NCBI GenBank assembly: GCA_934162125.1
Contig: CAKPHU010000005.1
Span: 64,528 to 128,527 of the forward strand
Source: an uncultured Bacilli bacterium
GTDB taxonomy: Bacteria; Bacillota_I; Bacilli_A; RF39; UBA660
Direction of reading: 5' to 3'
DNA length: 64,000 bases
Positions 29,589 through 63,408 of the stretch are shown here, one piece after another (the stretch's first letter is position 1; each line of letters opens with the position of its first letter). The position numbers and the translations under genes were made by a program. The notes beneath the pieces are model-generated. The model did no database searches. It was given only the letters and a program-made list of their open reading frames with translations, and was not told the origin of the DNA.

Positions 29589-30470
29589 CTATTCACCTCC
29601 AAAAACTTCATAAGCGTCAGTTACAACGAAGAAGGCTTCTGGATCAATATCTGAAATACCTTCTTTTAGTCGATAATAATCTTTGGTAGGTAAAACACAC
29701 ATTAGAACAGTTTGTTTTTCTTTAGCAAAACCTCCACGAGCATTAAATTCTGTTACACCATGGTTTAATTCTTCCAAAATAAATTTCTTAATAGCTTTTT
29801 CTTCATCTGTTACGATATAAAATGCTTTACTATCAGATACACCTAGAATTACACGATCTGAGATATAACTAACAATGTATAAAACAACAATTGCGTACAT
29901 TATTTTAGTTATACCGAAGACAAACCCTGATGTTAGAACAATAACACCATCAGTGAAAAGCATACTTTTGCCCATACCCTTTTTAGCAAACTTACTAATT
30001 ATCTGGGTTAAGATATCTGTTCCGCCAGTAGTATAACCAGCTTTATAAATCATACCTGCACCAAAACCAAAAGTCACACCACCAAAAATAGCTGTTAATA
30101 AAAGTTGGCTGTTATCAAAGACGATTAAGTCTGTGATGTTGGCAGTTAAACGAACTAGTAATGGGTATAATAATGAGCCTAAAATCGTGGCTTGGGTTTT
30201 TTCTTTGCCTAGAAAGAAGTAACTTACAATAAGAAGTAAGACATTTCCAACAAAGATAATCATAGAATTATCCCAACCAAATAACTGATGAAGGATAATA
30301 GCTGCTCCGCCGACTCCGTTAGCTACCAAATTATTAGGAGCTAGAAACAGATTGTAGGATAAAGCAACTATCAAACAGCCAACAAAGAAACTTATAAATC
30401 TTTTAAGACGTGATTTGTGCTTTATTTGATCTAAAATCCTAAAATTTTTAGTTTGTGAAATAATATGCAT
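29589..30470 (-). CDS. YitT family membrane protein (second tandem paralog)
   Basis: 293 aa with the same architecture. Shares blocks such as AGY(T/S)(T/S)GG and FFVVTD.YEV.GG with the neighbouring gene. Confidence 0.75.
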   Translation of the reverse strand: MHIISQTKNFRILDQIKHKSRLKRFISFFVGCLIVALSYNLFLAPNNLVANGVGGAAIILHQLFGWDNSMIIFVGNVLLLIVSYFFLGKEKTQATILGSLLYPLLVRLTANITDLIVFDNSQLLLTAIFGGVTFGFGAGMIYKAGYTTGGTDILTQIISKFAKKGMGKSMLFTDGVIVLTSGFVFGITKIMYAIVVLYIVSYISDRVILGVSDSKAFYIVTDEEKAIKKFILEELNHGVTEFNARGGFAKEKQTVLMCVLPTKDYYRLKEGISDIDPEAFFVVTDAYEVFGGE

Positions 30471-31568
30471 TATAATCCCCTCTTTAAACTCGCTTCTATA
30501 AATAAGTCTAGATTTCCATCTAATACTTTATCAACATTACTTGTTTCAACATTAGTTCTATGATCTTTGATTAAAGAATATGGATGAAGAACATAACTAC
30601 GTATTTGAGAACCAAATTCAATATTTTTTTGTTCTCCTTTTAGCTGACTTAACTCTCTATTTTGTTCTTCTATTTTTAACATTAAGAGTTTATTTTTTAA
30701 AACTCTAAGAGCTTCTTCCTTATTTTGAATTTGACTACGTTCATTTTGACAAGTTACTACTATTTTAGTTGGTAAGTGTGTAATTCTTACAGCTGAGTCG
30801 GTAGTATTAACGCTTTGTCCACCAGCACCTGATGAATGATAAACATCTATTTTCAAATCTTTTTCATCAATTACTATACTGTTGTCTTGTTCTATTTCTG
30901 GTGTTACATCAACAGAAGCAAAGGAAGTGTGACGCCTGTTATTGGAATCGAACGGAGAAAGACGAACAAGTCTATGAACTCCTTTTTCATTTTTTAAGTA
31001 GCCATAAGCATTAGATCCACATATCATAATTGATACACTTTTAATGCCAGCTTCATCACCATCTTGATAGTCAAGTACTTTTATTTTATAACCTTTTTTC
31101 TCACACCATCTTGTATACATACGATAAAGCATTAGAGCCCAATCACAAGATTCTGTACCACCTGCTCCTGGATGAATGTCTAAGATACAATTATTATGGT
31201 CATATGGTCCATTTAATAAAACTAAAAGACTTAATTTTTCTACTTTGCCTGGTAGTTCTTCAGTAAAATCAATAATTTGATTGTAGACATGTTCATCCAT
31301 TTCTATTGTTAATAATTCTAATAAGTCAATATTTTCATTAATAGTGTTTTTTAAATTTTCAACATTTTCGATCAGTTCTTTTTTTTCATTTATTTCTTTA
31401 ATAATTTCTTCAGCTTTATTACGGTCATCCCAAAAATTAGGAGCCTTAGTTTTTTCTTGTAAGTCTTCTAATTCTTTCTTTTTACTGTCGATGTCAAAGT
31501 GACCTCCATAAATCTGTTACTTTATCTAAATTTTCTTTTAAAGTACGTTCAAGTTCTTTTATATCCAT
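30470..31568 (-). CDS. prfB: Peptide chain release factor 2, with a programmed +1 ribosomal frameshift
   Basis: Frame 0 reads MDIKELERTLKENLDKVTDLWRSL then CTT TGA C, preceded by a GGAGG SD-like element. This is the classic RF2 autoregulatory site, at plus coords 31493-31499. The +1 frame continues DIDSKKKELEDL... into the 276-aa ORF that carries the GGQ motif. Confidence 0.85.
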
Positions 31569-41483: not shown

Positions 41484-41501
41484 ATTGATTCTCTTTTCTT
41501 A

Positions 41502-41984
41502 TTAAAGTTTTTTAATATCTATATACATTCTGGCATGATAGTCTTTTTTCTCATAGAATTTTATGGCGTTTTCGTTGTAGGCAAAGACATCAACCATAGA
41601 GTACTCACAACCTTTACTTTTGAAGTACTCTTCCATTTTCTCCATAAGTTGTTGGCCTACACCTTTGCTTCTTATTTTACTACTAACTATTAATTCGGTA
41701 ACCTTGCCTCTTTTTGGGCATTTGTAATCTAAGTAGTCATATTCATCATAGGGAGGAATTGTTCCCATTATAAGTCCAATCACCTTATCATCTTCTAAGG
41801 CTAGAAAACATTTACCATCTTGTTCTGATACTTCTTTTAAATCCAGTAGAGCCTTTTTTTCATGATATTCTGGGTGGACATGATCGAGGTTATCTTTATC
41901 AATAGATACAATGTATTCTTCTAATTCAACTAATAAATCTCTAACATCTTCTAAATATTTATCATTATATTCTATTATTTTCAT
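41502..41984 (-). CDS. GNAT family N-acetyltransferase
   Basis: 160 aa. Acetyl-CoA binding motif RSKGVGQQLM. Confidence 0.7.
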   Translation of the reverse strand: MKIIEYNDKYLEDVRDLLVELEEYIVSIDKDNLDHVHPEYHEKKALLDLKEVSEQDGKCFLALEDDKVIGLIMGTIPPYDEYDYLDYKCPKRGKVTELIVSSKIRSKGVGQQLMEKMEEYFKSKGCEYSMVDVFAYNENAIKFYEKKDYHARMYIDIKKL

Positions 41985-41997
41985 ACTACTCTCCTGC

Positions 41998-42594
41998 TTA
42001 TTTTTTGATATCTATATATGGTTTGTATATTTCTGCGTACTTTTCTAAGCATTCTTTGACATCAAACCAGTAGACATTAGTTAATATTCCATCACTTGGA
42101 TCTATTTCTGTTCTTTCAAGGACACCACCTAAGGCTTTAAGTGTTTTATCAGATCCTAAATTATTAACGTCACAGTCTAACATTACACGTTTTAGTCCTA
42201 ATTTTTGAGCTTCAACTAGACCTAAATACAAATTTATTTTATTATAGCCTTTTCTTCTTTCTGTTGGTCTGATCGCATAGCCAATATGGCCACCAAATTG
42301 TTGCATACTTAAAGATAAGTTCCATCTAACATTAATCATGCCAACTACTTTATTGTCATTTTTCCTAATAAGAAGAAAGGTTTTGGCTGGACATCTATTT
42401 ATTTTTTTTGCATACTCTTCATTTTCTGTATTTAAACATCTTTCAAGAGCTTTTTCAAAAGACATATCAGTCAACACCTTATCTAAGGAACCAGAACCAT
42501 TTATGTCTGAATTGTATTCTACAAACTCGTTAAAATATTCTAATATGTCTTTTTTTCTTTCAAGTGATGGTCTTTCCAAATAAAACTTTTCCAT
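41998..42594 (-). CDS. GNAT family N-acetyltransferase (RimJ/RimL-like)
   Basis: 198 aa. RRKGYNKINLYLGL motif and a RimL-like length. Confidence 0.65.
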   Translation of the reverse strand: MEKFYLERPSLERKKDILEYFNEFVEYNSDINGSGSLDKVLTDMSFEKALERCLNTENEEYAKKINRCPAKTFLLIRKNDNKVVGMINVRWNLSLSMQQFGGHIGYAIRPTERRKGYNKINLYLGLVEAQKLGLKRVMLDCDVNNLGSDKTLKALGGVLERTEIDPSDGILTNVYWFDVKECLEKYAEIYKPYIDIKK

Positions 42595-42610
42595 ATATAT
42601 TCTCCTTTGA

Positions 42611-43027
42611 TTATTTTTTAATCCACAAATACATACCTGTTATCTTATCAGGTTTATATTTAAATCCGGCTTTTTGATAAAACCCTTCATTTCCTGCTGT
42701 TGGAGTTAATTCAATTTGCATTTTTTCTCCTGGTTTTACATTTGATTCAATCATTCCTTTTAATTTATTAACAATCATCAAGCCATAGCCTTTTCCTTGA
42801 TATTCTGGTCTTACACAAATGTCTGATAGACAACAAACTATACTGAAGTCACCCACAACACGACCTATTCCTACTGCTTTACCATCTACCATAACTTTTA
42901 CCATGTACATGGTGTTTTTTAGAGCTTTCTCAACTTGTTCTTTTGAATAACTTTTAAATCCTACAGACTCTATTACGTCTAAGAATTCTTCAATACTAAT
43001 ATTTTCTTCTAATATTACTTCACTCAT
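42611..43027 (-). CDS. GNAT family N-acetyltransferase
   Basis: 138 aa. QGKGYGLMIV motif. Confidence 0.7.
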   Translation of the reverse strand: MSEVILEENISIEEFLDVIESVGFKSYSKEQVEKALKNTMYMVKVMVDGKAVGIGRVVGDFSIVCCLSDICVRPEYQGKGYGLMIVNKLKGMIESNVKPGEKMQIELTPTAGNEGFYQKAGFKYKPDKITGMYLWIKK

Positions 43028-43078
43028 TTTCTTACTCCTATTTTTAACAACTTGTTTTAACTTGCTTTTATGATAATT

Positions 43079-44273: not shown

Positions 44274-44570
44274 TTAGTTATCTATTTCAACAGCATTAGT
44301 AGCAGCAGCATCAGCAGCTTCATAAGTATTAGCAGCTTCATTGATTACTTTATTCATTTCTACTACTTGTTCATAGAATGCAGAGTATTTTTCATGAAAT
44401 TGTCTCATATAATCTGATTCAATATCACGAGCACCAATACTATTCCAGTGATCTGAAAATAAACCGTTCATAACTATATCTTCATTATCAAATACTTCTT
44501 TGATTTGATTTGCTAAATTTAAAATTTCATTTGCACTACTACGTGCTTGTTCATAATTATCTATTTGCAT
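44274..44570 (-). CDS. WXG100/ESAT-6-like small helical protein (paralog of 18140-18436)
   Basis: 98 aa with DHWNSIGA. Its SD is embedded in the end of the upstream gene. Last gene of cassette B. Confidence 0.55.
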   Translation of the reverse strand: MQIDNYEQARSSANEILNLANQIKEVFDNEDIVMNGLFSDHWNSIGARDIESDYMRQFHEKYSAFYEQVVEMNKVINEAANTYEAADAAATNAVEIDN

Positions 44571-44878
44571 TAAAAACCAATCCTTCCTGCACTACTTGCT
44601 ACGTCATTTTCAGCCTCTTCTAAGATGTTAGCTGCCCTTCCTAAACCTTCACCTAAATTAGCAACTTGCTCATTAAATGTATTTAACAATACAGCAAGAT
44701 CTTCATATGCAGCCATAAATTTTTCTCTACCACCACCAGATTTCCAGTTAGAGCCTAATTCATCAACTTTTGCTTTTAATGATGATAATTTTTCACGAAA
44801 TTCTTCTGAGTTTTCAATTGTTTCTCTACTGTTGCGGTTCATACCACCAAAATCAACTTGTAAACCATTTGTATTCAT
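44570..44878 (-). CDS. WXG100-like protein (paralog of 18447-18749)
   Basis: SNWKSGGG central motif. Start placed at MNTNGLQ (44878), preceded by an AGGAGG SD. The ORF-track start at 44905 appears to be a TTG. Confidence 0.6.
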   Translation of the reverse strand: MNTNGLQVDFGGMNRNSRETIENSEEFREKLSSLKAKVDELGSNWKSGGGREKFMAAYEDLAVLLNTFNEQVANLGEGLGRAANILEEAENDVASSAGRIGF

Positions 44879-44965
44879 TAATAAATACCTCCTACTTATT
44901 TTCAATATATCGTTTAATTGTTTACTTGTATATATTTTATATTAAAATGTTACATAATTTTACAT

Positions 44966-45253
44966 CTAAATACTTAAACTTGCTAACTGATTTTCTAAAT
45001 CTTGGATACTTTTAGCAGATGATTTGATAAATTCACCAACTTCACTCATTTTTTCTGCTTTTGCAGTAGCTAGTTCAACTTGACTTGTACATTGAGCAGT
45101 AAAATTATTTTTAGCTTTTCCACTCCAAGCCGAAAGATCGCTTGTAACATTAGTATCATAATTTTGAATAGCTGTTTTTATATTGTTGGCAGCTGAACAT
45201 AACTTTTCTCCTGCTGCTATTACTTCAGCAAAATCACATACATATTTGGCCAT
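44966..45253 (-). CDS. WXG100 family protein (paralog of 20082-20369)
   Basis: 95 aa. SAWSGKAKNNF canonical WxG motif. AAAGGAG SD. Confidence 0.7.
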   Translation of the reverse strand: MAKYVCDFAEVIAAGEKLCSAANNIKTAIQNYDTNVTSDLSAWSGKAKNNFTAQCTSQVELATAKAEKMSEVGEFIKSSAKSIQDLENQLASLSI

Positions 45254-45267
45254 TGATAAACTCCTTT

Positions 45268-46188
45268 CTATATTTCGACTGTTTCATTTCCTGAACTTTG
45301 ATTATCAGTTGAGCTAGCTAAATTAGTTAATATAGTACTTTCATTTACTATTTTGTTAGCATTAAGGTCAAATTGTCCATTATTTGTAACAGTATATTTA
45401 GTCATATCAATATTTATATTATTTTCATTTTCACTATTCCAATTTTCATTAACGATAAAACTAACATTAGATTTAGCATTGTCAGTAGTAGGCTTTTCAA
45501 AACTGATACCAACAATACACTTAACTTCTTCACCATTATTGTTTTTGAAAATAATTTCATCACCAACTGTTCCGATTGATTCATTACATAAAACTACATA
45601 GTGATCGTCAATCATGGCGTAACCATTGCCATTATAGGTAACTTTATTTATATAGTCGTTCTTTAGCGAATCATCTAATTTATCTAAATTAATACCAACA
45701 TGATTTACTTCTTCAATTTTATCTGTAATAGCATTTTCATCTTTTTCTTTGTCTTCTGGCTCTGTGTTTGTTTCATCTAATCCCGAAATAGCACTAGCTA
45801 TTCCAGCTGCTATGCCTCCTGAAATTGTACTTGATGATCCTCCAGAGTAATAACTTCCTGAATAGCCTCCGCTTGATGAACTACTACTTGAATATCCACT
45901 ACTAGCAGTTTTATTAGTTTCTGTTTTGGCTAGCGTTAATGACTTTTGAAGGGAAGTGTGAGCACTAACTACATTATCAGCATAAATAGATGTATTTTTG
46001 AATTTTGTAACACAGGCTTCAACATTTGCGATCATTTGAGCTTTAACTGATGAGAAGTCAAAACCATCTTCACAACTTGTATCATAACCACTTATCGAAT
46101 CTACAACACTTGAGATTTGATTTGCTAAAGAATTTATTGTATTAGCTCCTGATATGACAGGATCACAATCTAACATAAATACACTCAT
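45268..46188 (-). CDS. Modular effector-like protein: WXG/LXG-type helical N-domain, Ser/Gly-rich linker, and a C-terminal beta-rich domain of unknown function
   Basis: 306 aa. Same architecture as 18826-19746, but the C-terminal domain (NGYAMIDDHYVVLCNESIGTVGDEIIFKNNNGEEVKCIVG...) has no motif I recognise. Confidence 0.5.
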   Translation of the reverse strand: MSVFMLDCDPVISGANTINSLANQISSVVDSISGYDTSCEDGFDFSSVKAQMIANVEACVTKFKNTSIYADNVVSAHTSLQKSLTLAKTETNKTASSGYSSSSSSSGGYSGSYYSGGSSSTISGGIAAGIASAISGLDETNTEPEDKEKDENAITDKIEEVNHVGINLDKLDDSLKNDYINKVTYNGNGYAMIDDHYVVLCNESIGTVGDEIIFKNNNGEEVKCIVGISFEKPTTDNAKSNVSFIVNENWNSENENNINIDMTKYTVTNNGQFDLNANKIVNESTILTNLASSTDNQSSGNETVEI

Positions 46189-46198
46189 ATATTATCTC

Positions 46199-47008
46199 CT
46201 ATTTTGGGTCCCATTGATCAAGACCATATTGTTCAACAATACTAATTAAATTTTCACTATAGGTTTGACTTGTTGCATAACCGCATTGTTTAACAGCGAC
46301 GCAAGCCTCCTTATAATTAGTAGCCTCTAAAACAGGCTTGTATCTGTCTTTAGTTAACAGTTCAGCATGATCAATAATAGAATCATTTACTGAATCATAA
46401 TCTCTGAAATCAGCACGTGTTTGATATCTAGTACCATCAGCATTTTGTTCTCCAGTTAAACAATTTACTCTTTTGCCAGTCCAACTACTACCAGCTTTAA
46501 TACCAAAAATATTGTTACCAATTCTTGATCTACCCCAACCTGTTTCTAGTATTGCTTGAGCAAGTGTTAAAGAAGGTAAAACTCCATATTTATTATAGGT
46601 TTCTATGGCACCAGCTTTGATTTCATTTACAAAGTCTAATCTGTAACCTGATAAGTTACCTGGATTTTTATAATCACTGTTGATTGCTGTTTGACTAACT
46701 CCATTAAGTTTTAATTGAACTGCTTGATTTGCTTCACTATCAGCATTTTTGTATGTTGCGGAAGCTGTAGTAAGAAAGTCTGCTATAGTTTTGAAATTTT
46801 CACCAATAGTATTTAGAGATGTATCCAATTCATTAATTAAATTAACACATTCTTCTGCTACTGGTCCCATGAAAACACTTTCGTTGCTAAGTTTGGTTAA
46901 GGAATCATTTAGGCTGGTATTACATTCAGTTACTTTGGAATTTGTTAAAGTAGTAGTAGATATTGCATTATTGAAAATGCCATAATCTGTAATTGAAACT
47001 TTATCCAT
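46199..47008 (-). CDS. LXG/WXG-like helical N-domain fused to a GH73 N-acetylglucosaminidase (FlgJ/mannosyl-glycoprotein endo-beta-N-acetylglucosaminidase-type) domain
   Basis: 269 aa. The N-terminus aligns with the 19769-20071 protein. The C-terminus carries LPSLTLAQAILETGWGRS, the GH73 consensus around the catalytic Glu. Confidence 0.7.
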   Translation of the reverse strand: MDKVSITDYGIFNNAISTTTLTNSKVTECNTSLNDSLTKLSNESVFMGPVAEECVNLINELDTSLNTIGENFKTIADFLTTASATYKNADSEANQAVQLKLNGVSQTAINSDYKNPGNLSGYRLDFVNEIKAGAIETYNKYGVLPSLTLAQAILETGWGRSRIGNNIFGIKAGSSWTGKRVNCLTGEQNADGTRYQTRADFRDYDSVNDSIIDHAELLTKDRYKPVLEATNYKEACVAVKQCGYATSQTYSENLISIVEQYGLDQWDPK

Positions 47009-47019
47009 TCTATCACTCC

Positions 47020-47916
47020 TTATTTATTTCCTTCATATCTTAAGTAACCATCCCATCCACTGCTATAAAATGGAACAACGTTTATTTCTTTACCAGTTGA
47101 ATCACCATCTTGGCCGTCTCTATCACCATGGGCTCCAATCATTTGTCCATCGCCTATATACATTTCGGTATGAGAATTTTCATCTAATAAAACGTCACCT
47201 GGTAATAGGTCTTCTGCTCTTGGTGTACCTGGATACCATGTAAATCCACATTGAGTAAATGATCTTTTCATATTTCCTGTGAATCCTGCTCCGGCTTCTT
47301 TAACCGGGATACCCGCATTTTCATAAGCATTGATGACAAAAGATGAACAGTCATAATTTGGATTACCATTTCTTGTCTTTTGTGAGTAACCGTGTGTGTC
47401 GTCATTGGCAATGTCAAAGGCCCAATTGATAGCATTTTGAATATATGGAGAACTCGATCTTATTGCATAAGAATTAGAACCAGATGTGCTTGTGGTACTA
47501 TCTCCATTGATACTAACAGTGGCTAATTTAACAGAGGCAGCACTCTGTAGTTGACTTTCAATTTGAGTTTTTAAAGTTTCCATTTCCGACTCGTAGCTAT
47601 TCATTTCAGAAAGATAACTACGGGCTGAACTTGTATTATTAGCAGCGTATGCAGTATTGTAGTTACTCTTAGCAATATTATATTTTGGTTTTAGTTCTTT
47701 ATATTTGGCATATAAATCACAGGCAGATGCAAAAGCTGTGAACTGAGTTTTTAAGCTACTTGCATATTCTGAACTAAAATCATTTGCTTTAGATGAAAAG
47801 TTATTATATGAGTTACCTTTCCATGATGAAGCAAGCTCATTTACGCAATTAGAATAATTTGTTATAGCTGAAGTAATACTACTTAAATCAGAATTAACTT
47901 GACTTCCACTTACCAT
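47020..47916 (-). CDS. WXG100-domain N-terminus fused to an NlpC/P60 cysteine peptidase domain
   Basis: N-terminal LASSWKGNSYNNF (W-x-G). C-terminal NYDCSSFVINAY...NSHTEMYIG (NlpC/P60 Cys and His). Start placed at the second ATG (47916), preceded by GGAGG. The ORF-track start is 47928. Confidence 0.7.
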   Translation of the reverse strand: MVSGSQVNSDLSSITSAITNYSNCVNELASSWKGNSYNNFSSKANDFSSEYASSLKTQFTAFASACDLYAKYKELKPKYNIAKSNYNTAYAANNTSSARSYLSEMNSYESEMETLKTQIESQLQSAASVKLATVSINGDSTTSTSGSNSYAIRSSSPYIQNAINWAFDIANDDTHGYSQKTRNGNPNYDCSSFVINAYENAGIPVKEAGAGFTGNMKRSFTQCGFTWYPGTPRAEDLLPGDVLLDENSHTEMYIGDGQMIGAHGDRDGQDGDSTGKEINVVPFYSSGWDGYLRYEGNK

Positions 47917-48059
47917 ATTTACCTCCATTTATTTTATCTTAATATTATTTTATCATTATAAATAAAGGAAAAACAATTTTATTTGTGAAAAGACAAGATG
48001 TTTACATTTTTTAGGACATAGTGCTTTCTCTATTATAAATTATTTTTGTTTTAAATATG

Positions 48060-48252: not shown

Positions 48253-48296
48253 TAGTAAAAAAAAGAAAAGTCAACATACTATAATGAATTGACTTT
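48253..48296 (-). terminator. Rho-independent terminator for the pilin-LRR operon (AAAGTCAA-N14-TTGACTTT plus a U8 run on the minus strand)
   Basis: About 50 nt downstream of the LRR gene stop (48348). On the minus strand the stem is followed by UCUUUUUUUU. Confidence 0.5.
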
Positions 48297-48347
48297 CCTT
48301 ATAATTATATTTTTAACGCATTAAAGTTAAATTTTTTTGCTATGATG

Positions 48348-49748
48348 TTACTCTTTAACAACTTCAATATCTCCATACCAGTTTTCGACGGTTCCATAAT
48401 CAAAATTAGCTTCTGATGGCCCTCCTGTTATTGATTTCCAGTCGAATTTTCTACCTGTTTTATTTACTATTTTTGTTAGAGAAGAATTGTAATTGTCATA
48501 AGTAATTTCTTTTCTAAAAGCATCCGTTCCTATACTTGTTACTGTTGAAGGAATGGTTAATGACCTTAGTTTGCAATTTCTGAAAGCATTATTCCCAATT
48601 TTTATCAATCCTTCAGGTAAAGTTACAGCTTTGATATTACTATAATAAAATGCTGAGTTAGAGATTGTTTTTACTTTTTCTGGAATTATTACATTGTCAG
48701 TTCCATATGCAGCATAACCTATTATATTTGTGTAATCAATTTTGCCATTGTTGTCTCTAGCATAAACGAAGCCAGGTACTAAATTACCATCACCATTGTC
48801 TACATATGTAACATAATTTAGCATAAAAGCGTTAGTTCCTATACTTGTTACTGTTGAAGGAATTTTTAACGTGCCAGTAAAATAGCTTACACCCAAAGCT
48901 CCACTGGCAATTGTTTTTAGTTTTACACCGTTTTTTTCTGCCGGAATAGTTACATCTTTCTTTTTAGCTCCAGCATAACCTACTAATGTACTATAATCTA
49001 TGCCGCTTGTAGTTCTTTTATATATCCATGCCTGACTATCATCTTGAACAGCATTTGTATTGAATGCTTGCCCTCCTAGTATTACTACGCTTTGAGGAAT
49101 TTTTAATTCTTTTATTTTGTTACTATAAAATGCACTACCGCCAATACTTATTACTCCGTTCGGAATATTTACTTTTGAAATACCATCAAAAGCAAAAGCA
49201 CTACTTTGAATATCAATAACAGTATCAGGTATTACAACTTCCCAGTCACTTAAAGACATTCGTTGAAAAGCTCCTGATTCAATAACTTTTAATTTCACAC
49301 CATTTATTTCTCCTGGTATTCTAAATACTTTATCTGGAAATTCTGATAAATCACCAATGTAACCTCTTATTCTAGTATAATCATACGAATCACCTTTTTT
49401 AACATATAAAAATGATGGGTTTGGGATTGGGTTGTTACAGTACGCGCACGCTCCTAGAGAAGTTACTGAATCGGGTATTATGGCTTCTGTCAATTGATTA
49501 TATTGAAATGCCGATGCTCCTATCGTTTTTATTCCTTCATCGTATGTTAAATCTTTTATTTTGTTATTAGCGAAAGCCCAGATTTTTATCTCTATTACAC
49601 TTGATGGAATATGTAGACTTTTAATGTTATTATTTTTAAATGATTCATTACCGATTTTTTTTATTGTGTCTGGGATATAAACACTAGTTATTCCCATGTT
49701 TCTAAATGTATAATTGTGAATAGAAGTCACTTCTCTATCACCTATCAT
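48348..49748 (-). CDS. BspA-type leucine-rich repeat (LRR_5) protein
   Basis: 466 aa made of repeated units of the type IP(D/S)(S/T)V(T/I)SIG..AF..N..(K/T). No N-terminal signal peptide. Its ATG overlaps the TGA of the upstream pilin gene (ATGA). Confidence 0.7.
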   Translation of the reverse strand: MIGDREVTSIHNYTFRNMGITSVYIPDTIKKIGNESFKNNNIKSLHIPSSVIEIKIWAFANNKIKDLTYDEGIKTIGASAFQYNQLTEAIIPDSVTSLGACAYCNNPIPNPSFLYVKKGDSYDYTRIRGYIGDLSEFPDKVFRIPGEINGVKLKVIESGAFQRMSLSDWEVVIPDTVIDIQSSAFAFDGISKVNIPNGVISIGGSAFYSNKIKELKIPQSVVILGGQAFNTNAVQDDSQAWIYKRTTSGIDYSTLVGYAGAKKKDVTIPAEKNGVKLKTIASGALGVSYFTGTLKIPSTVTSIGTNAFMLNYVTYVDNGDGNLVPGFVYARDNNGKIDYTNIIGYAAYGTDNVIIPEKVKTISNSAFYYSNIKAVTLPEGLIKIGNNAFRNCKLRSLTIPSTVTSIGTDAFRKEITYDNYNSSLTKIVNKTGRKFDWKSITGGPSEANFDYGTVENWYGDIEVVKE

Positions 49749-50377
49749 ACCTGGTATTGTAACATCTGTTCCACACTTTTTTTATAGTATGTAAGTTCTG
49801 CTTCCGAATCAGATAAATTTTTAAAACTAAAACATTTCTTAGCTTCTTCTTCGGTTAAACTGTGTCTAGCAGGAAGTATTTCAGTAACGCCATCTTTATT
49901 CATTACAGATATTATGTTCTTGCCTTTTATTGGTTGCCTATTATTTACGTACTTTCTGCCGAGATGAACATCTTGGGCAGTTATTGTTTTAGATGATTTT
50001 AAGTTTATTTTCCAACCAGTTTGATCACAACTTACCCAATAATAATCATTGGTACCATCTTTATTTAGTGTTATTACAACATATGCATCTAACCAGTCTG
50101 AAAAAGGGCTTTTTGTTATGTCACTATTATCATTTAACAAATTGTTTATATGAATATAATAGGTCGTATCATAATCATCAATTTTAAGTGTTTCATTTGT
50201 AACCATTGCATTAGCAGTGCTTACAAAACTAAGTGCATCTTGAACATATACTTTTGCCTTAGATTTATTAATAATACTACTTACAGATGGAATTGCTATT
50301 GCCATTAAAATTCCCATTATTACTATGACTGCTAGTAACTCTACTAGCGTAAAACCTTTTTTATTACTATACCACAT
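49745..50377 (-). CDS. Type IV pilin / pseudopilin-like protein with a class III (prepilin peptidase) signal
   Basis: MWYSNKKG|FTLVELLAVIVIMGILMAIAIP is the canonical prepilin leader, with G-F cleavage and methylation of F and Glu+5. 210 aa. Confidence 0.75.
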   Translation of the reverse strand: MWYSNKKGFTLVELLAVIVIMGILMAIAIPSVSSIINKSKAKVYVQDALSFVSTANAMVTNETLKIDDYDTTYYIHINNLLNDNSDITKSPFSDWLDAYVVITLNKDGTNDYYWVSCDQTGWKINLKSSKTITAQDVHLGRKYVNNRQPIKGKNIISVMNKDGVTEILPARHSLTEEEAKKCFSFKNLSDSEAELTYYKKSVEQMLQYQV

Positions 50378-50528
50378 TTTTTCTCACCCTCTTTTACCTG
50401 AAGTATACCAGCTTCTTATGCTTTTTTCAACCATTATCAAACGGAACATAAGAAAAGAAAATGTTATCTAATAGTTTAATGACTTTTTATTAGAAATTTG
50501 CTACAATTATAATCGGAAGATGGTTTAA

Positions 50529-52827: not shown

Positions 52828-53331
52828 TTAAATTTCATATAAATATATATTTTCTTTGTAACATTCATCAAATATATTCCAGTCTTCTTGTCTTATAAAC
52901 TTTCCACCTAAATGTTTATAAAACTCATTTGAAGGATTGCCATCTAAACACCCTATGATAACTTTATTAAAGCCCTTTTCTCTCAATTTAGAAAAGGCTG
53001 CGTTAATTAGAGCTTTTCCATATCCTTTTCCTTTAACAGAAGATAAAAGATATAATATTTGAACCTCTCCACAGTCAGTAAAATCAGTTCTATCTGATTT
53101 TTTTATTTTTAGAATTCCAACTACTTTCTCATTTTCTTCTAATACATAATGGTAATCGTCTTGTTTAAAATTTTCTTTTTCCTTTTCAATTCTTTCGGCT
53201 CTATTAGAAGAAATCTTTTCTAATAATTTATCAGATACTACTCCGCACAAACTATCATTCCAGCTTGAAATATTTACATTAACCCAAGCTTCACAGTCCT
53301 TTAATTCTTTTTCTCTAATAATATATTCCAT
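52828..53331 (-). CDS. GNAT family N-acetyltransferase
   Basis: 167 aa. VKGKGYGKALINAA motif. Confidence 0.7.
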   Translation of the reverse strand: MEYIIREKELKDCEAWVNVNISSWNDSLCGVVSDKLLEKISSNRAERIEKEKENFKQDDYHYVLEENEKVVGILKIKKSDRTDFTDCGEVQILYLLSSVKGKGYGKALINAAFSKLREKGFNKVIIGCLDGNPSNEFYKHLGGKFIRQEDWNIFDECYKENIYLYEI

Positions 53332-53410
53332 TATTGTATCTCCTATATCTTTATTTTTTATGTATGACTTATTTTTTAGATTTTAAATTGTCTTATAAGT
53401 AATAATTTCT

Positions 53411-53896
53411 TTATTTTAAATCTTTTTTCATAGGATAAAATCTTAATCCTTTGATACATTGTTCTTTGTCTGTATCTACAAATCCTAAATGTTTATAAAT
53501 TTCATGTGCATATGGAGAAGAATTGACGGTAAAGAATTCATTGTTATTTAAGGATTCTGCTTTATTATATAACTTTCTTCCTATTCCTTGTTTGTGATAT
53601 TTTCCATCTACAAAGAATAATGCTATATGCGTGGTGTCTTTAGTCGCAATAACCCCTAATATTTTGTTGCTTTCATCGTATGCTCCATAAAAGTCTCTTG
53701 CTTCAACCCATGAAACATCATCAATTGTTTTTTTAAATTCTTTTATACCTTCTTCGGTGTAGTCTGGTGCTTCAAACTCCATAAATACTTCCCAAACTAA
53801 TTTTAGTGCTTCTGGCATTTCTTCTTTTAATATTTTTCTAATTTCCATTAATATCATCTCCTTTTTTGATTTTAAAATTTTATAGCATTTTCGCAT
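53411..53896 (-). CDS. GNAT family N-acetyltransferase
   Basis: 161 aa. HKQGIGRKLYNKA motif. Confidence 0.7.
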   Translation of the reverse strand: MRKCYKILKSKKEMILMEIRKILKEEMPEALKLVWEVFMEFEAPDYTEEGIKEFKKTIDDVSWVEARDFYGAYDESNKILGVIATKDTTHIALFFVDGKYHKQGIGRKLYNKAESLNNNEFFTVNSSPYAHEIYKHLGFVDTDKEQCIKGLRFYPMKKDLK

Positions 53897-60397: not shown

Positions 60398-61435
60398 TTA
60401 TTTATTTTCAATTTGCTTTGTTTCACTTAGCAGTCTATCAAAATCTGACACATAATTTTTATCCTGTATAACTTTATATTTTTCATATTCATTTTCTGCT
60501 TTTTGAGTTGCTTGTTTATGTGAAACTTTTCCTTTTCCTTCTAAAACTTTATAATGAAAAACTTTCAAAGCATTTTCTACTTCATTTTTCCAATCTTCCA
60601 TATACATAGTTATACTTCTTTCTGCATTATTTTCAGCAATGTCCAAAAATAAGTTTACTAAACTATTCAAATTTTTAATTTCTTGTTCGTTCAAATAATT
60701 CTTAGCAATAATTACATCAGATTTTAAAATTTTTCCATTAGGTGAGTTTTCCCAAGTAGTAAGTCCCATATTTTCCTTTTGCGAATCTACTCTGTTATAA
60801 ACTATTTCAGCAGCAGTGTTTCCAGTAATTGCATAGTGAAATTTATTTTGAATGGTTTTATAAAAAGCTATTGCAGTGTCACTATTCTTATCGTAATCAA
60901 TGGAACATTCAGCAAATATATCAGTGATTTTCTGATAAAACATTCTCTCACTTGTACGAATTAATTTAATTCTTTCAAGTAATCTTTTAAAATACTCTTG
61001 ATCAGATTTTTTTGCTTTTAAGAATCTTTCATCATTTAATGCAAAACCTTGAACCATATAATCTTTAATTATTTTATTTGCCCAAGTCCTAAATTTAATT
61101 GCTTTCTTAGAATTAACCCTAAATCCAATAGAAATAATCATATCAAGATTATAATACCTAGTATTGTAAGTTTGCTTACCATCATTACCCATATGTGTAA
61201 TTTTTGCACATGTGCTATTTTCATCTAGCTCTTCATCTTTATAAATATTGTTAATATGTCTTACAATTCCACTTCTATCAATATTAAAAAGTGTTGCTAG
61301 CGCTTCCGTATTTAGCCATACATCTTCGTTTTCTAATATTACTTCTACTTTTGTATTACCTTCTTCATCATTATAAAATAAAATGTTCTTTTCATTCCCA
61401 ATTAATTTTTTATCCATACTTGTCCCCCCTCGCAT
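60398..61435 (-). CDS. RhuM family (Virulence_RhuM) protein
   Basis: 345 aa. YNLDMIISIGFRVNSKKAIKFRTWANKII matches the RhuM family core (YNLD.IISVGYRVNS....FR.WAT). Confidence 0.7.
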   Translation of the reverse strand: MRGGTSMDKKLIGNEKNILFYNDEEGNTKVEVILENEDVWLNTEALATLFNIDRSGIVRHINNIYKDEELDENSTCAKITHMGNDGKQTYNTRYYNLDMIISIGFRVNSKKAIKFRTWANKIIKDYMVQGFALNDERFLKAKKSDQEYFKRLLERIKLIRTSERMFYQKITDIFAECSIDYDKNSDTAIAFYKTIQNKFHYAITGNTAAEIVYNRVDSQKENMGLTTWENSPNGKILKSDVIIAKNYLNEQEIKNLNSLVNLFLDIAENNAERSITMYMEDWKNEVENALKVFHYKVLEGKGKVSHKQATQKAENEYEKYKVIQDKNYVSDFDRLLSETKQIENK

Positions 61436-62775: not shown

Positions 62776-63408
62776 CTATTCACTCTTTACTTTATCATCA
62801 ATTTTATTACTTATTGCTTTTAAAGTTTGTAAATACTCTTTTTCTATCGGACTTATTGTTTTTACTTGATATTTCTTATATTCATCTTTTGGGTTGTAGT
62901 CTACTGCAGTTGCATATAAATCAAGAACTTGTCTATATAATACTTTTTCAGATGATCTTATATCTTTAATTCTAGCAAGTAATTCTTTCCAATAATTTCC
63001 TCCACCATTTCCTTTAAGTCTTTCATCATCCATAGTGAAGCCTTTGATCATATATTCTTTTAATCTTTCAGTCGCCCATCTTCTAAAATTAGTAGCAACT
63101 TTTGATTTTATTCTATATCCTAAAGATATAATCATATCCAAATTGTAACATTTAACTTTTCTTTCAACTTTTCGGTTTCCTTCTTTTTGAACTGTCAAGA
63201 ATTCCTTGACAGTTGAATCTACAGATAACTCTTCTTCATCAAAGATATTTTTAATATGCAAACTTATATTTTGTTTAGTCGTATCATATAAGTCTGCCAT
63301 CTGTTGTTGTGATAGCCATACTGTTTCATCTTCAAGTTTTACATCTATTTTTGTCATTCCATCATTAGTTTGATAAATTACAATATTATTATTATTATTT
63401 TCTTCCAT
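62776..63408 (-). CDS. RhuM family (Virulence_RhuM) protein, short paralog
   Basis: 210 aa. YNLDMIISLGYRIKSKVATNFRRWATERL. Diverged from the 345-aa copy. Confidence 0.7.
   Translation of the reverse strand: MEENNNNNIVIYQTNDGMTKIDVKLEDETVWLSQQQMADLYDTTKQNISLHIKNIFDEEELSVDSTVKEFLTVQKEGNRKVERKVKCYNLDMIISLGYRIKSKVATNFRRWATERLKEYMIKGFTMDDERLKGNGGGNYWKELLARIKDIRSSEKVLYRQVLDLYATAVDYNPKDEYKKYQVKTISPIEKEYLQTLKAISNKIDDKVKSE

Follow-up and report, generated by a model that had tools for sequence, protein, structure and literature searches.

Type IV pilins share an N-terminal helix, alpha1, which forms the interface through which they assemble into filaments. Leucine-rich repeats (LRR) of the BspA type are found joined to Sec or lipoprotein signals and to choline-binding or other surface-anchoring modules. 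Homopolymer-tract contingency loci are known among the surface genes of Neisseria, Haemophilus, Campylobacter and Mycoplasma. Grafting of a foreign domain onto a pilin is known from the modular type IV pilins of S. sanguinis, PilB (pilin plus vWA) and PilC (pilin plus lectin) (PMC8179133, PMC9934059). The architecture IPR012902-IPR026906, in which IPR026906 is the BspA LRR, is listed among the "modular pilins" in Dataset S1 of Raynaud et al. 2021, where 18 proteins and 6 more carrying two copies are counted; no function was assigned to it, and no N_methyl plus BspA-LRR member was experimentally characterised in that study (PMC8179133). A literature search for pilin, BspA and LRR returned no paper on such a fusion.

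Here we analysed a locus in a 64-kb stretch of DNA (the window) from an uncultured low-GC Bacilli species. The initial annotation had read it as an orphan pilin translationally coupled to an LRR protein, and was not aware of a described example. The combination of N_methyl and BspA-LRR already appears, however, in the Dataset S1 entry above (PMC8179133). We conclude that the window gene is a frameshifted allele of an uncharacterised modular LRR pilin, that is, a known kind of protein and no new type of system.

A probable single gene interrupted at the pilin-LRR junction

Two ORFs were confirmed on the minus strand of the window, one of 210 aa (50377..49745) and one of 466 aa carrying LRR_5 (49748..48348), which share a 4-nt ATGA overlap at 49748..49745. 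The first encodes the prepilin leader, alpha1 and the pilin head over residues 1-200, continues for 10 out-of-frame codons (SVEQMLQYQV) and ends at a premature TGA (49747..49745). While the ORFs and their overlap are as first described, the reading as two separate genes does not hold, because the LRR frame reaches back past its ATG. It extends for 11 more codons (KKCGTDVTIPG-M...), which form part of the first conserved LRR unit, and is closed solely by the TAA inside TAT-AAAAAAA-GTG, at the A7 tract (Table 1). Addition of one A to this tract reconstructed a 676-aa protein that is identical to database protein P0001 at 675/676 positions (1 aa differs). The ATG of the 466-aa ORF (49748..49746) corresponds to M211 of the intact protein and is fortuitous as a start; its position is not conserved, and a properly spaced Shine-Dalgarno sequence is absent there.

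Whether other genomes fuse the two ORFs, a check proposed in the initial annotation, could be answered positively. All 120 homologues listed are single proteins of ~666-1,090 aa except one of 568 aa and one 663-aa partial (thus 118/120 are full-size fusions), and both PF07963 and PF13306 are present in 116 of them. The ORFs are likewise fused in same-species strains with an A8 tract, at the same syntenic locus. Across the family, the junction consensus LTYYNxxCGxDVxIP runs unbroken, and the invariant cysteines C182 and C202 flank the break. A stop/start overlap between two cistrons is not conserved: relatives have one continuous ORF, and the overlap is found only in A7 alleles. The fused homologues and the same-species A8 alleles contradict a translationally coupled two-gene system. 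The LRR ORF does lack a signal of its own, as had been pointed out, but not as a property of a separate protein; the LRR part has none because its signal is the prepilin leader, which the unbroken gene encodes 210 codons upstream. We interpret the ORF pair as the footprint of a 1-nt deletion in a single gene, and we assign a probability of about 0.8 to the reading that 50377..48348 as a whole encodes a modular type IV pilin of 676 aa and is present here as a frameshifted (OFF or pseudogene) allele.

Table 1. Coordinates of the gene and of its features within the window
Feature	Position	Strand	Evidence
Whole gene, 676-aa modular type IV pilin when intact	50377..48348	-	reconstruction
ORF1 as found, 210 aa	49745..50377	-	ORF, profiles, predicted structure
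Class III leader peptide MWYSNKKG	50354..50377	-	profiles, family conservation
alpha1N (hydrophobic) and alpha1C, one continuous predicted helix, residues 11-60	50198..50353	-	AlphaFold and profile
Second homopolymer A6, codons N5-K6-K7-G8, intact in the window	50357..50362	-	sequence
A7 tract, the frameshift site	49777..49783	-	sequence compared with other alleles
Remainder of the gene, -1 frame, residues 200-676 of the intact protein	48348..49781	-	profile, reconstruction, model
C-terminal cap, ~60 aa, conserved (…LTKIVNKTGRKFDWK-ITGGP…NWYGDIEV)	48351..48533	-	homologue alignment
Left copy of short imperfect direct repeat, ATTCCATCTGTAA, encodes IPSV	50281..50293	-	comparison with deletion alleles
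Right copy of imperfect repeat, ATTCCTTCAACAGTAA, encodes IPSTV	48539..48554	-	comparison with deletion alleles
Promoter-like site TTGAAA, 17-nt spacer, TG-extended TATACT	50402..50430	-	consensus match
Shine-Dalgarno-like GAGGGTGAG, 6-14 nt upstream of the start codon	50383..50391	-	read from sequence
Terminator-like hairpin, 12-bp stem, 12-nt loop, then U-rich run UCUUUUUUUU ending in U8	48256..48299	-	

The promoter-like site upstream of the gene matches the consensus at 10/12 positions, with the TG present, and ends 25 nt upstream of the ATG; it is a consensus match only, since the number of such sites in the region is not significantly above that in its shuffles. At the 3' end lies a terminator-like hairpin (z = -2.98; 1/200 shuffles folds equally well), which a terminator consensus scan missed because it has too few G-C pairs. 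Given this hairpin, the gene is probably monocistronic.

A conserved prepilin signal precedes a predicted LRR solenoid

The N-terminus of the 210-aa ORF, MWYSNKKG followed by FTLVELLAVIVIMGIL, has the features of a class III signal: a polar leader ending in Gly, a hydrophobic stretch (running from FTLVE to AIAIP) and Glu at mature position 5 (E13), with predicted prepilin-peptidase cleavage between G8 and F9. It matched the N_methyl family PF07963 above the cut-off (8.6e-9) as well as TIGR02532 (1.2e-7; 31.3 bits against a cut-off of 16.3). In an alignment of 51 homologues, E13 was invariant and G8, F9, T10 and L11 were at least 90% conserved, the G-FTL-E prepilin signal thus being retained across homologues. 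The signal, which had been called a textbook one, is therefore genuine and family-wide. AlphaFold placed a helix at residues 11-60 in both models, corresponding to the ~50-residue alpha1 of type IV pilins, and profile searches matched solved pilins over positions 2-61 (Geopilin, 9.5e-9; PilA, 5.8e-8; S. sanguinis PilE1, 9.1e-7). The head is predicted to contain strands at 71-76, 95-104, 110-118 and 122-128 (pLDDT ~90). Foldseek searches of the pilin module or of its head (residues 61-199) against the PDB gave no significant match to a solved pilin (best E = 0.63), and alpha1 is the sole part recognisable as pilin, by sequence profile. Matches to the NCBIfam models of ComGC, ComGD and GspG were all below the curated cut-offs and confined to the N-terminal part of the pilin module; they mostly cover alpha1, the ComGD match extending to residue 111.

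In the 466-aa ORF, LRR_5 was matched in 3 stretches (E=1.9e-59; 199.5 bits against a cut-off of 27.7). The AlphaFold model of the full-length protein (pLDDT 91.3) combined the helix at 11-60 with a beta head and, from ~residue 200 onwards, an uninterrupted LRR, and Foldseek aligned the LRR with 4gt6, 4fs7, PcpA (4cp6), 4h09 and TpLRR (6mlx), with E down to 7.8e-10. A profile match above the gathering threshold and the modelled solenoid fold thus identify the C-terminal part as a BspA-type LRR (PF13306 / IPR026906), in agreement with the initial annotation. The intact gene encodes an 8-residue class III leader, a ~200-residue pilin module and, directly fused to it, a ~470-residue LRR solenoid with a small cap; in the window, the -1-frame remainder comprises the solenoid, this C-terminal cap and a TAA stop. 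A remnant of the cap also persists beside other modular pilin genes (L020/L021).

The gene has been inactivated repeatedly in natural populations

Intact alleles have an A8 tract, TAT AAA AAA AAG, encoding Y198-K-K-K. Deeper alleles (L028/L029) read AAC AAA AAG, and the family consensus is N199 (YYN); the A8 tract, absent from that consensus, arose by one AAC-to-AAA change. The tract of the window strain (codons K199-K201) has lost one A, and translation therefore ends 10 codons later at the TGA. This leaves the LRR part out of frame, without a signal peptide and without a proper ribosome-binding site. Gene calls for the exact 210-aa product exist on at least 23 contigs, which come from independent assemblies in ENA, Logan and NCBI, and the A7 and A8 alleles go with different SNP haplotypes; judged from these assemblies, A7 is a real allele.

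Over 3.4 kb, the window differs by 9 nt (0.26%) from the ON allele L001 and by 61 nt from OFF haplotype 2. Recurrence of A7 was judged by polarised site-pattern counts with L028 as the polarising sequence: 0 sites group the two A7 haplotypes, whereas 17+6 group the window allele with A8 alleles. A7 is thus present on two unrelated haplotypes and therefore arose at least twice. Between ON and OFF alleles, pN/pS was 0.03-0.28 in both gene halves, and the gene appears to have been functional until recently. A third lineage, found on at least 18 contigs, combines a 1.74-kb deletion with a homopolymer frameshift, the second homopolymer (N5-G8) having expanded from A6 to A7 in the deletion alleles L030-L033. 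The deletion ends in an imperfect 13-16-nt repeat, with GTAA as the exact junction microhomology. OFF and deleted alleles together made up ~70% of the sampled contigs, and a sister species has an independent frameshift that does not lie in a long homopolymer. Among the consensus assemblies, the exact window haplotype never occurred in an ON form, which argues for slow switching or none. By its predicted product, the A7 allele is a loss-of-function (OFF or pseudogene) state. The origin of A7 on at least two occasions at this mutational hotspot, together with the independent 1.74-kb deletion, shows, at the level of the assembled alleles, that inactivation of the gene recurs in natural populations of this uncultured, low-GC gut species of Bacilli.

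Genomic context and proposed action of the intact protein

The initial annotation had seen no type IV pilus or competence genes nearby, and this was borne out across the 64-kb window: none were detected by regular expressions for the T2SSE Walker A and PilD GGGD motifs, by Pfam analysis of 30 large window ORFs or in precomputed Pfam assignments over ~40-60 kb. Genes for a prepilin peptidase, an assembly ATPase or a platform protein were likewise absent within 10 kb of 19 homologous loci, at which up to 5 paralogues per genome occur in tandem, and none of them adjoins a stand-alone relative. An exhaustive search recovered the same pilin module in 653 representative clusters, where it is fused with LRR_5, DUF285 or carbohydrate-binding-type domains or has no fusion partner; this search replaced a word-indexed one with the head domain alone, whose single match reflects the sensitivity limit of the index. 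With N_methyl and LRR_5 in one protein of ~676 aa, the intact allele and its homologues are modular pilins sensu Raynaud et al. 2021; in the window's own allele, the break falls between the pilin and LRR modules. The "conserved pilin" of TANB77 was set aside as unrelated, as it belongs to Tad-type pilins in Clostridia (PMC11680825).

From these features we infer that the intact protein would insert into the membrane via its hydrophobic alpha1N, and that a prepilin peptidase whose gene lies elsewhere would cut it behind G8 and N-methylate it. Via alpha1, it could then join a type IV or Com-type filament, in which it would be a subunit of low abundance with its most likely place at the tip or close to it, and the LRR solenoid would thereby be presented as a ligand-binding adhesin. 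An LRR adhesin on a type IV filament is most likely the function of the intact protein. The initial proposal of an LRR adhesin displayed on a pilus is thus retained for the fused protein, but not for a coupled two-protein system.

Alternative explanations

If both ORFs were functional genes, a stand-alone orphan pilin would be coupled via the ATGA overlap to an LRR protein without a signal, and this second protein would be delivered together with a pseudopilus or attached to it. Although the ORFs and their overlap exist, the split form is the commonest allele in the assemblies and termination-reinitiation at ATGA is mechanistically possible, we consider this very improbable: intact fused alleles occupy the same locus in the same species, nearly all listed homologues are full-size fusions, the frame is lost within a conserved stretch that two invariant cysteines bracket, and the ATG, itself neither conserved in position nor served by a spaced Shine-Dalgarno sequence, is preceded by 11 conserved codons of the LRR frame. 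Furthermore, a cytoplasmic LRR fragment would have no export route. Homopolymer indels are a classic class of sequencing and assembly error, but that the genome is truly A8 is scarcely credible, as at least 23 + 11 contigs, produced by different assemblers and taken from different archives, carry the identical A7 allele; we reject this explanation because A7 and A8 are completely linked to SNP haplotypes across many independent assemblies. Readthrough under an alternative code in which UGA = Trp ("Mollicutes"-labelled MAGs) was also discarded, given that the window contains prfB (RF2) with a CTT-TGA-C +1 frameshift site and that a TAG directly follows the TGA. Programmed recoding, by a -1 ribosomal frameshift or transcriptional slippage on A7, could in principle restore the full-length protein. 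A -1 slip on TAT-AAA-AAA-AGT would yield the wild-type YYKKKCG (junction peptide YYKKKCGTDVTIPGMIGDR), the OFF alleles show no further decay, and RNA polymerase slippage on poly-A is established biology in AT-rich bacteria. However, the conserved slippery site and stimulatory elements of a dnaX-like system were not found: the slip site is not conserved in homologues, its zero-frame heptamer T AAA AAA departs from the canonical X XXY YYZ, and neither a downstream stimulatory structure (z = -0.70) nor an upstream SD-like element is present. Since A7 is also at the low end for efficient transcriptional slippage, we regard recoding as improbable.

A different question is whether loss of the frame is reversible. 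In this case, an A8/A7 contingency switch would vary display of the LRR adhesin by slipped-strand mispairing, with IgA or phage pressure, for example, as the selective force. This would fit a homopolymer that lies inside the ORF and has ON and OFF length variants among related strains, as in contingency genes, with both lengths in strains as close as 9 nt over 3.4 kb, at least two independent length changes, OFF alleles that are otherwise intact with low pN/pS, and a second homopolymer of the same gene that varies too. Phase variation nevertheless seems unlikely, though it deserves consideration, as the tract is short and of the A/T type in a window of 29% GC that contains 61 A7 and 11 A8 runs. 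Moreover, orthologues do not share the tract (consensus YYN; AAC AAA AAG in L028/L029), which is of recent AAC-to-AAA origin, each OFF haplotype is fixed across many samples with no ON version of the same haplotype seen, and irreversible deletion alleles coexist. Doubtful, too, is the wider proposal that the A8 and A6 tracts form a genuine reversible ON/OFF switch of a pilus-displayed LRR adhesin in a gut Bacilli lineage with a reduced genome, that the abundance of OFF and deleted alleles reflects selection by host immunity or phages against an adhesin at the filament tip, and that the family of up to 5 paralogues is a variable repertoire of type IV filament adhesins with its machinery elsewhere. 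As for the intact protein, its class III signal might do no more than export LRR proteins and anchor them to the membrane or the surface, with no incorporation into a filament, by analogy with the archaeal 'bindosome' substrate-binding proteins that have prepilin-type signals. Consistent with this, filament machinery adjoins no family member (64-kb window, 19 loci, one stand-alone relative), genomes contain numerous paralogues, with as many as 5 in tandem, which is unusual for minor pilins, and the head gave no match to solved pilins. We still think an anchor alone a rather poor candidate, because retention of all 50 residues of the alpha1 helix and of the invariant Glu5 points beyond export to assembly, and because the carrier module is common to diverse grafts, as in characterised modular pilins (PMC8179133).

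Significance and comparison with known systems

For annotation, the locus shows how a homopolymer frameshift can imitate an operon of an "orphan pilin + coupled signal-less LRR protein", and gene callers have reproduced the split across dozens of contigs in public collections. The combination of a prepilin with a BspA-LRR, so far one line in a supplementary table, gains sequence, structural and population detail. Its LRR form is widespread in uncultured gut Bacilli, and hundreds of protein clusters reuse the carrier module. At least three separate routes have led to knockout of the gene within a single species; this recurrent pattern suggests that the intact protein is a costly or targeted surface structure. 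The modular LRR pilin is a concrete candidate for a role in adhesion of uncultured gut Bacilli.

As in homopolymer-tract contingency loci, an intragenic mononucleotide run toggles by its length the frame of an adhesin-type gene, recurrently and with ON and OFF states in close strains. Unlike in those loci, the tract of the window gene is short (A8), recently created and not conserved; its OFF states look stably inherited, and the deletion alleles point to gene loss. With ComGC-GG and PilE1, the intact protein shares a similar leader, Glu5 and alpha1, but it is 3-5 times larger and is encoded outside any comG or pil operon (PMC10191384, PMC6916266). Its solenoid belongs to the same LRR_5 family and fold as T. 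forsythia BspA, pneumococcal PcpA (4cp6), T. pallidum TpLRR (6mlx) and the gut-bacterial structures 4gt6/4fs7/4h09, and a presumed role in adhesion or ligand binding is common to the BspA-type surface proteins; in contrast, the matched entries are not described as pilins, and their LRR is carried on non-prepilin domains.

Compared with PilB and PilC of S. sanguinis, the graft is a ~470-residue LRR solenoid, whose function is given as unclear (PMC8179133). Instead of a pil operon, there are orphan genes or tandem paralogues in uncultured gut Bacilli, and the head is unmatched in the PDB. Like these S. sanguinis modular pilins, however, the intact protein combines a class III signal and a pilin module with a bulky non-T4P ligand-binding domain across a short junction, and its host is likewise a monoderm (Bacilli).

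The prepilin and LRR reading frames form one disrupted gene

The initial annotation described the locus as two coupled genes, an orphan pilin followed by a signal-less LRR protein. Sequence, Pfam and NCBIfam confirmed both ORFs and their ATGA overlap (see table), as well as the prepilin N-terminal methylation motif of the 210-aa ORF (PF07963, 8.6e-9; TIGR02532, above cut-off) and the strong BspA-type LRR_5 region of the 466-aa ORF (Pfam, 1.9e-59). The two-gene reading proved to be a frameshift artefact: adding one A to the A7 run in silico joined both ORFs into a 676-aa protein, and the homologues are fused. Translation of the LRR frame 5' of its ATG gave 11 further sense codons (KKCGTDVTIPG-M), the beginning of a canonical BspA repeat unit (xDVxIPxxIxGxxVTxI), and this frame is shut upstream solely by the TAA within TAT-AAAAAAA-GTG. 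The ATG is residue 211 of the 676-aa protein, a position that is not conserved, and no properly spaced Shine-Dalgarno sequence for it was present in the sequence.

The reconstructed protein was identical to the database protein P0001 (676 aa) at 675/676 residues. Among the best 120 homologues listed, 118 are single proteins of about 666-1,090 aa, the exceptions being one of 568 aa and one 663-aa partial, and 116 carry PF07963 and PF13306 together. The pilin N-terminus is present in the homologues; aligning 51 of these showed E13 to be invariant, G8, F9, T10 and L11 to be at least 90% conserved, and the junction to follow the consensus LTYYNxxCGxDVxIP, with invariant C182 and C202 on either side of the break. 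The 210-aa and 466-aa ORFs are one gene, disrupted by a 1-nt contraction of A8. What the window encodes is a 210-aa prepilin without the LRR and without the second invariant cysteine, and the LRR part is left without an export signal; the upstream in-frame signal that the LRR protein had seemed to lack is the prepilin leader itself. Of the two refuting conditions given in the initial annotation, absence of the pilin N-terminus from homologues therefore does not hold, and an upstream in-frame signal for the LRR does.

Features of the window and related loci, and state of the A tract
Feature	Position	Strand	Remark
210-aa ORF	50377..49745	minus	starts MWYSNKKG followed by FTLVELLAVIVIMGIL
466-aa ORF	49748..48348	minus	ATGA overlap with 210-aa ORF
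A7 run	49783..49777		
prfB	30470..31300; frameshift site ~31499	minus	classic programmed +1 frameshift (RF2)
Type VII-secretion-style cluster	44274..47928	minus	directly downstream of pilin-LRR gene
Phage_lysozyme2 protein, 306 aa	18826..19746	minus	C-terminal domain, 2.8e-14
RhuM-family gene	60398..61435	minus	
RhuM-family gene	62776..63408	minus	210 aa; profile positions 1-117 of 252 only
Small GNAT genes	~41500..43030; 52828..53896		at least 5 in about 12 kb
Five tandem paralogues	L010 5644..16400		MAG CAKPHH01; ~675 aa each, head to tail
Non-LRR modular pilin	L020 9983..11386; L021 9983..11356		MAG CAKPLN01; 457-467 aa
Sister-species gene	L034 6001..8030		ENA ERZ15609848
A7 tract	window (= L002), L022-24		
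A8 tract	L001, L025-27, L035		
TAT AAC AAA AAG at tract site	L028/29		

The gene has been inactivated repeatedly

Gene calls for the identical 210-aa product occurred on at least 23 contigs, from assemblies made independently. The 90%-identity cluster contained seven intact 676-aa haplotypes, two distinct split haplotypes and remnants of 71 and 75 aa, all at one syntenic locus (acyltransferase_3, the gene, NlpC/P60, glucosaminidase, WXG100). Since L028/29 read AAC AAA AAG, the A8 run of this species was created by a single C-to-A change. Over 3.4 kb, the window allele differed from the ON (A8) allele L001 at 9 sites and from the other OFF (A7) haplotype at 61; with L028 as outgroup, no site grouped both OFF alleles and 23 joined the window allele with ON alleles. 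On these sequences, the A tract has contracted at least twice. Furthermore, pN/pS between ON and OFF alleles was 0.03-0.28 in both halves of the gene, showing that purifying selection acted on both until recently. In a third lineage, represented by at least 18 contigs, 1.74 kb has been deleted between short imperfect repeats encoding IPSV/IPSTV, and the A6 run in codons 5-8 has expanded to A7. A rough contig census, with allele states and tract lengths read from consensus assemblies, counted about 21 copies as intact, about 35 as frameshifted and about 20 as deleted.

The A7 allele in the window is a loss-of-function state, which could be either reversible (phase variation) or an intermediate on the way to gene loss. 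Recurrent inactivation is the favoured reading, given that the tract is short and not conserved, that the OFF haplotypes are fixed and that deletions coexist with them. In a sister species, the paralogue or orthologue at L034 (86% identical to P0002 across the pilin half) was frameshifted independently, deeper in the LRR and outside any long homopolymer, where ...GITSIY runs into QIQ and a stop; it is called as 237-aa and 304-aa ORFs.

Structure and distribution of the pilin module

In an AlphaFold2 model of the intact protein (51 sequences; mean pLDDT 91.3), a continuous helix (11-60) was followed by a beta head that extended to about residue 170; a short helix-strand connector led on to an LRR solenoid, unbroken from about residue 200 through to the C-terminal cap. 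In Foldseek the solenoid matched BspA-type LRR surface proteins (4gt6, 4fs7, PcpA 4cp6, 4h09, TpLRR 6mlx). The isolated pilin module (pLDDT 87.4) gave no significant fold match in the PDB, and its profile matched solved pilins (Geobacter PilA-N, PilA, S. sanguinis PilE1, MshA, PAK) through leader and alpha1 only.

With just the 163-aa head as query, a word-indexed search gave 29 candidates and a single match, though more than 100 homologues exist at 45-76% identity; such negatives are unreliable for short, divergent queries. An exhaustive search recovered the module together with its head from 653 representative clusters (E <= 1e-10; proteins of about 100 to 1,291 aa). Sampled architectures carried LRR_5 of variable length, DUF285 repeats, CHB_HEX_C / Y_Y_Y / Gly_rich_2, unassigned C-termini, or the module by itself.

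Genomic context

The window has a GC content of 29% and contains the housekeeping genes pgk, gap, whiA, lgt, uvrA, uvrB, ftsEX-pcsB and prfB. The 24 N-terminal codons of prfB end in CTT TGA C after an SD-like GGAGG, with the main ORF in the +1 frame, showing that UGA is a stop in this 'Mollicutes-like' lineage. With a promoter-like site, a Shine-Dalgarno sequence and a terminator-like hairpin of its own, the pilin-LRR gene is probably monocistronic. Motif scan and Pfam detected no T2SSE, T2SSF or Peptidase_A24 in the 64-kb window.

Relatives in reference genomes come from gut MAGs that carry the labels Bacilli, Mollicutes, Tenericutes or Erysipelotrichaceae and, in a few cases, Clostridium or Muribaculaceae. 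There the gene often lies in tandem arrays of up to five paralogues (two each at L003, L007, L008, L012 and L014), with no pilus machinery near the arrays. The pilin at L020/L021 combines a near-identical prepilin N-terminus with a C-terminal module that is not an LRR and ends ...GVSPAFRIA. About 400 bp downstream lies a remnant of the LRR-pilin C-terminal cap, out of frame, which suggests that modules have been exchanged or have decayed among the pilin genes.

The type VII-style cluster adjoins the pilin-LRR gene in every allele of this species. Besides an unassigned 306-aa protein and two to three small WXG100-like ones, it encodes one of 302 aa that is NlpC/P60-like at its C-terminus (weak precomputed Pfam match only) and one of 269 aa containing a glucosaminidase domain; the latter two resemble toxins that combine a helical N-terminus with a peptidoglycan-hydrolase head. 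In size and layout these toxin-like proteins (45-48 kb) are similar to the Phage_lysozyme2 protein, which may likewise be a secreted cell-wall hydrolase. Elsewhere, the shorter RhuM-family gene is probably a truncated duplicate, given its partial profile match, and small GNAT acetyltransferase genes are unusually dense beside the locus.

Proposed function and relation to known modular pilins

The intact protein would be a prepilin-peptidase substrate. Through alpha1 and Glu5 it would join a filament of the type IV or Com type as a minor subunit, probably close to the tip, and display the LRR as an adhesin. The proposal draws on what is established for class III signals and on the modular pilins characterised so far (PMC8179133, PMC10191384). 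Our literature search found no paper characterising a pilin fused to a BspA-type LRR. Modular pilins are a class already described (Raynaud et al. 2021, PMC8179133), and in Dataset S1 of that study IPR012902-IPR026906 is one of the commonest architectures, with 18 proteins and a further 6 that have two copies, its function given as "not clear"; IPR026906 is the database entry for the BspA-type LRR region. The gene thus encodes an uncharacterised member of the modular pilins and does not represent a new system.
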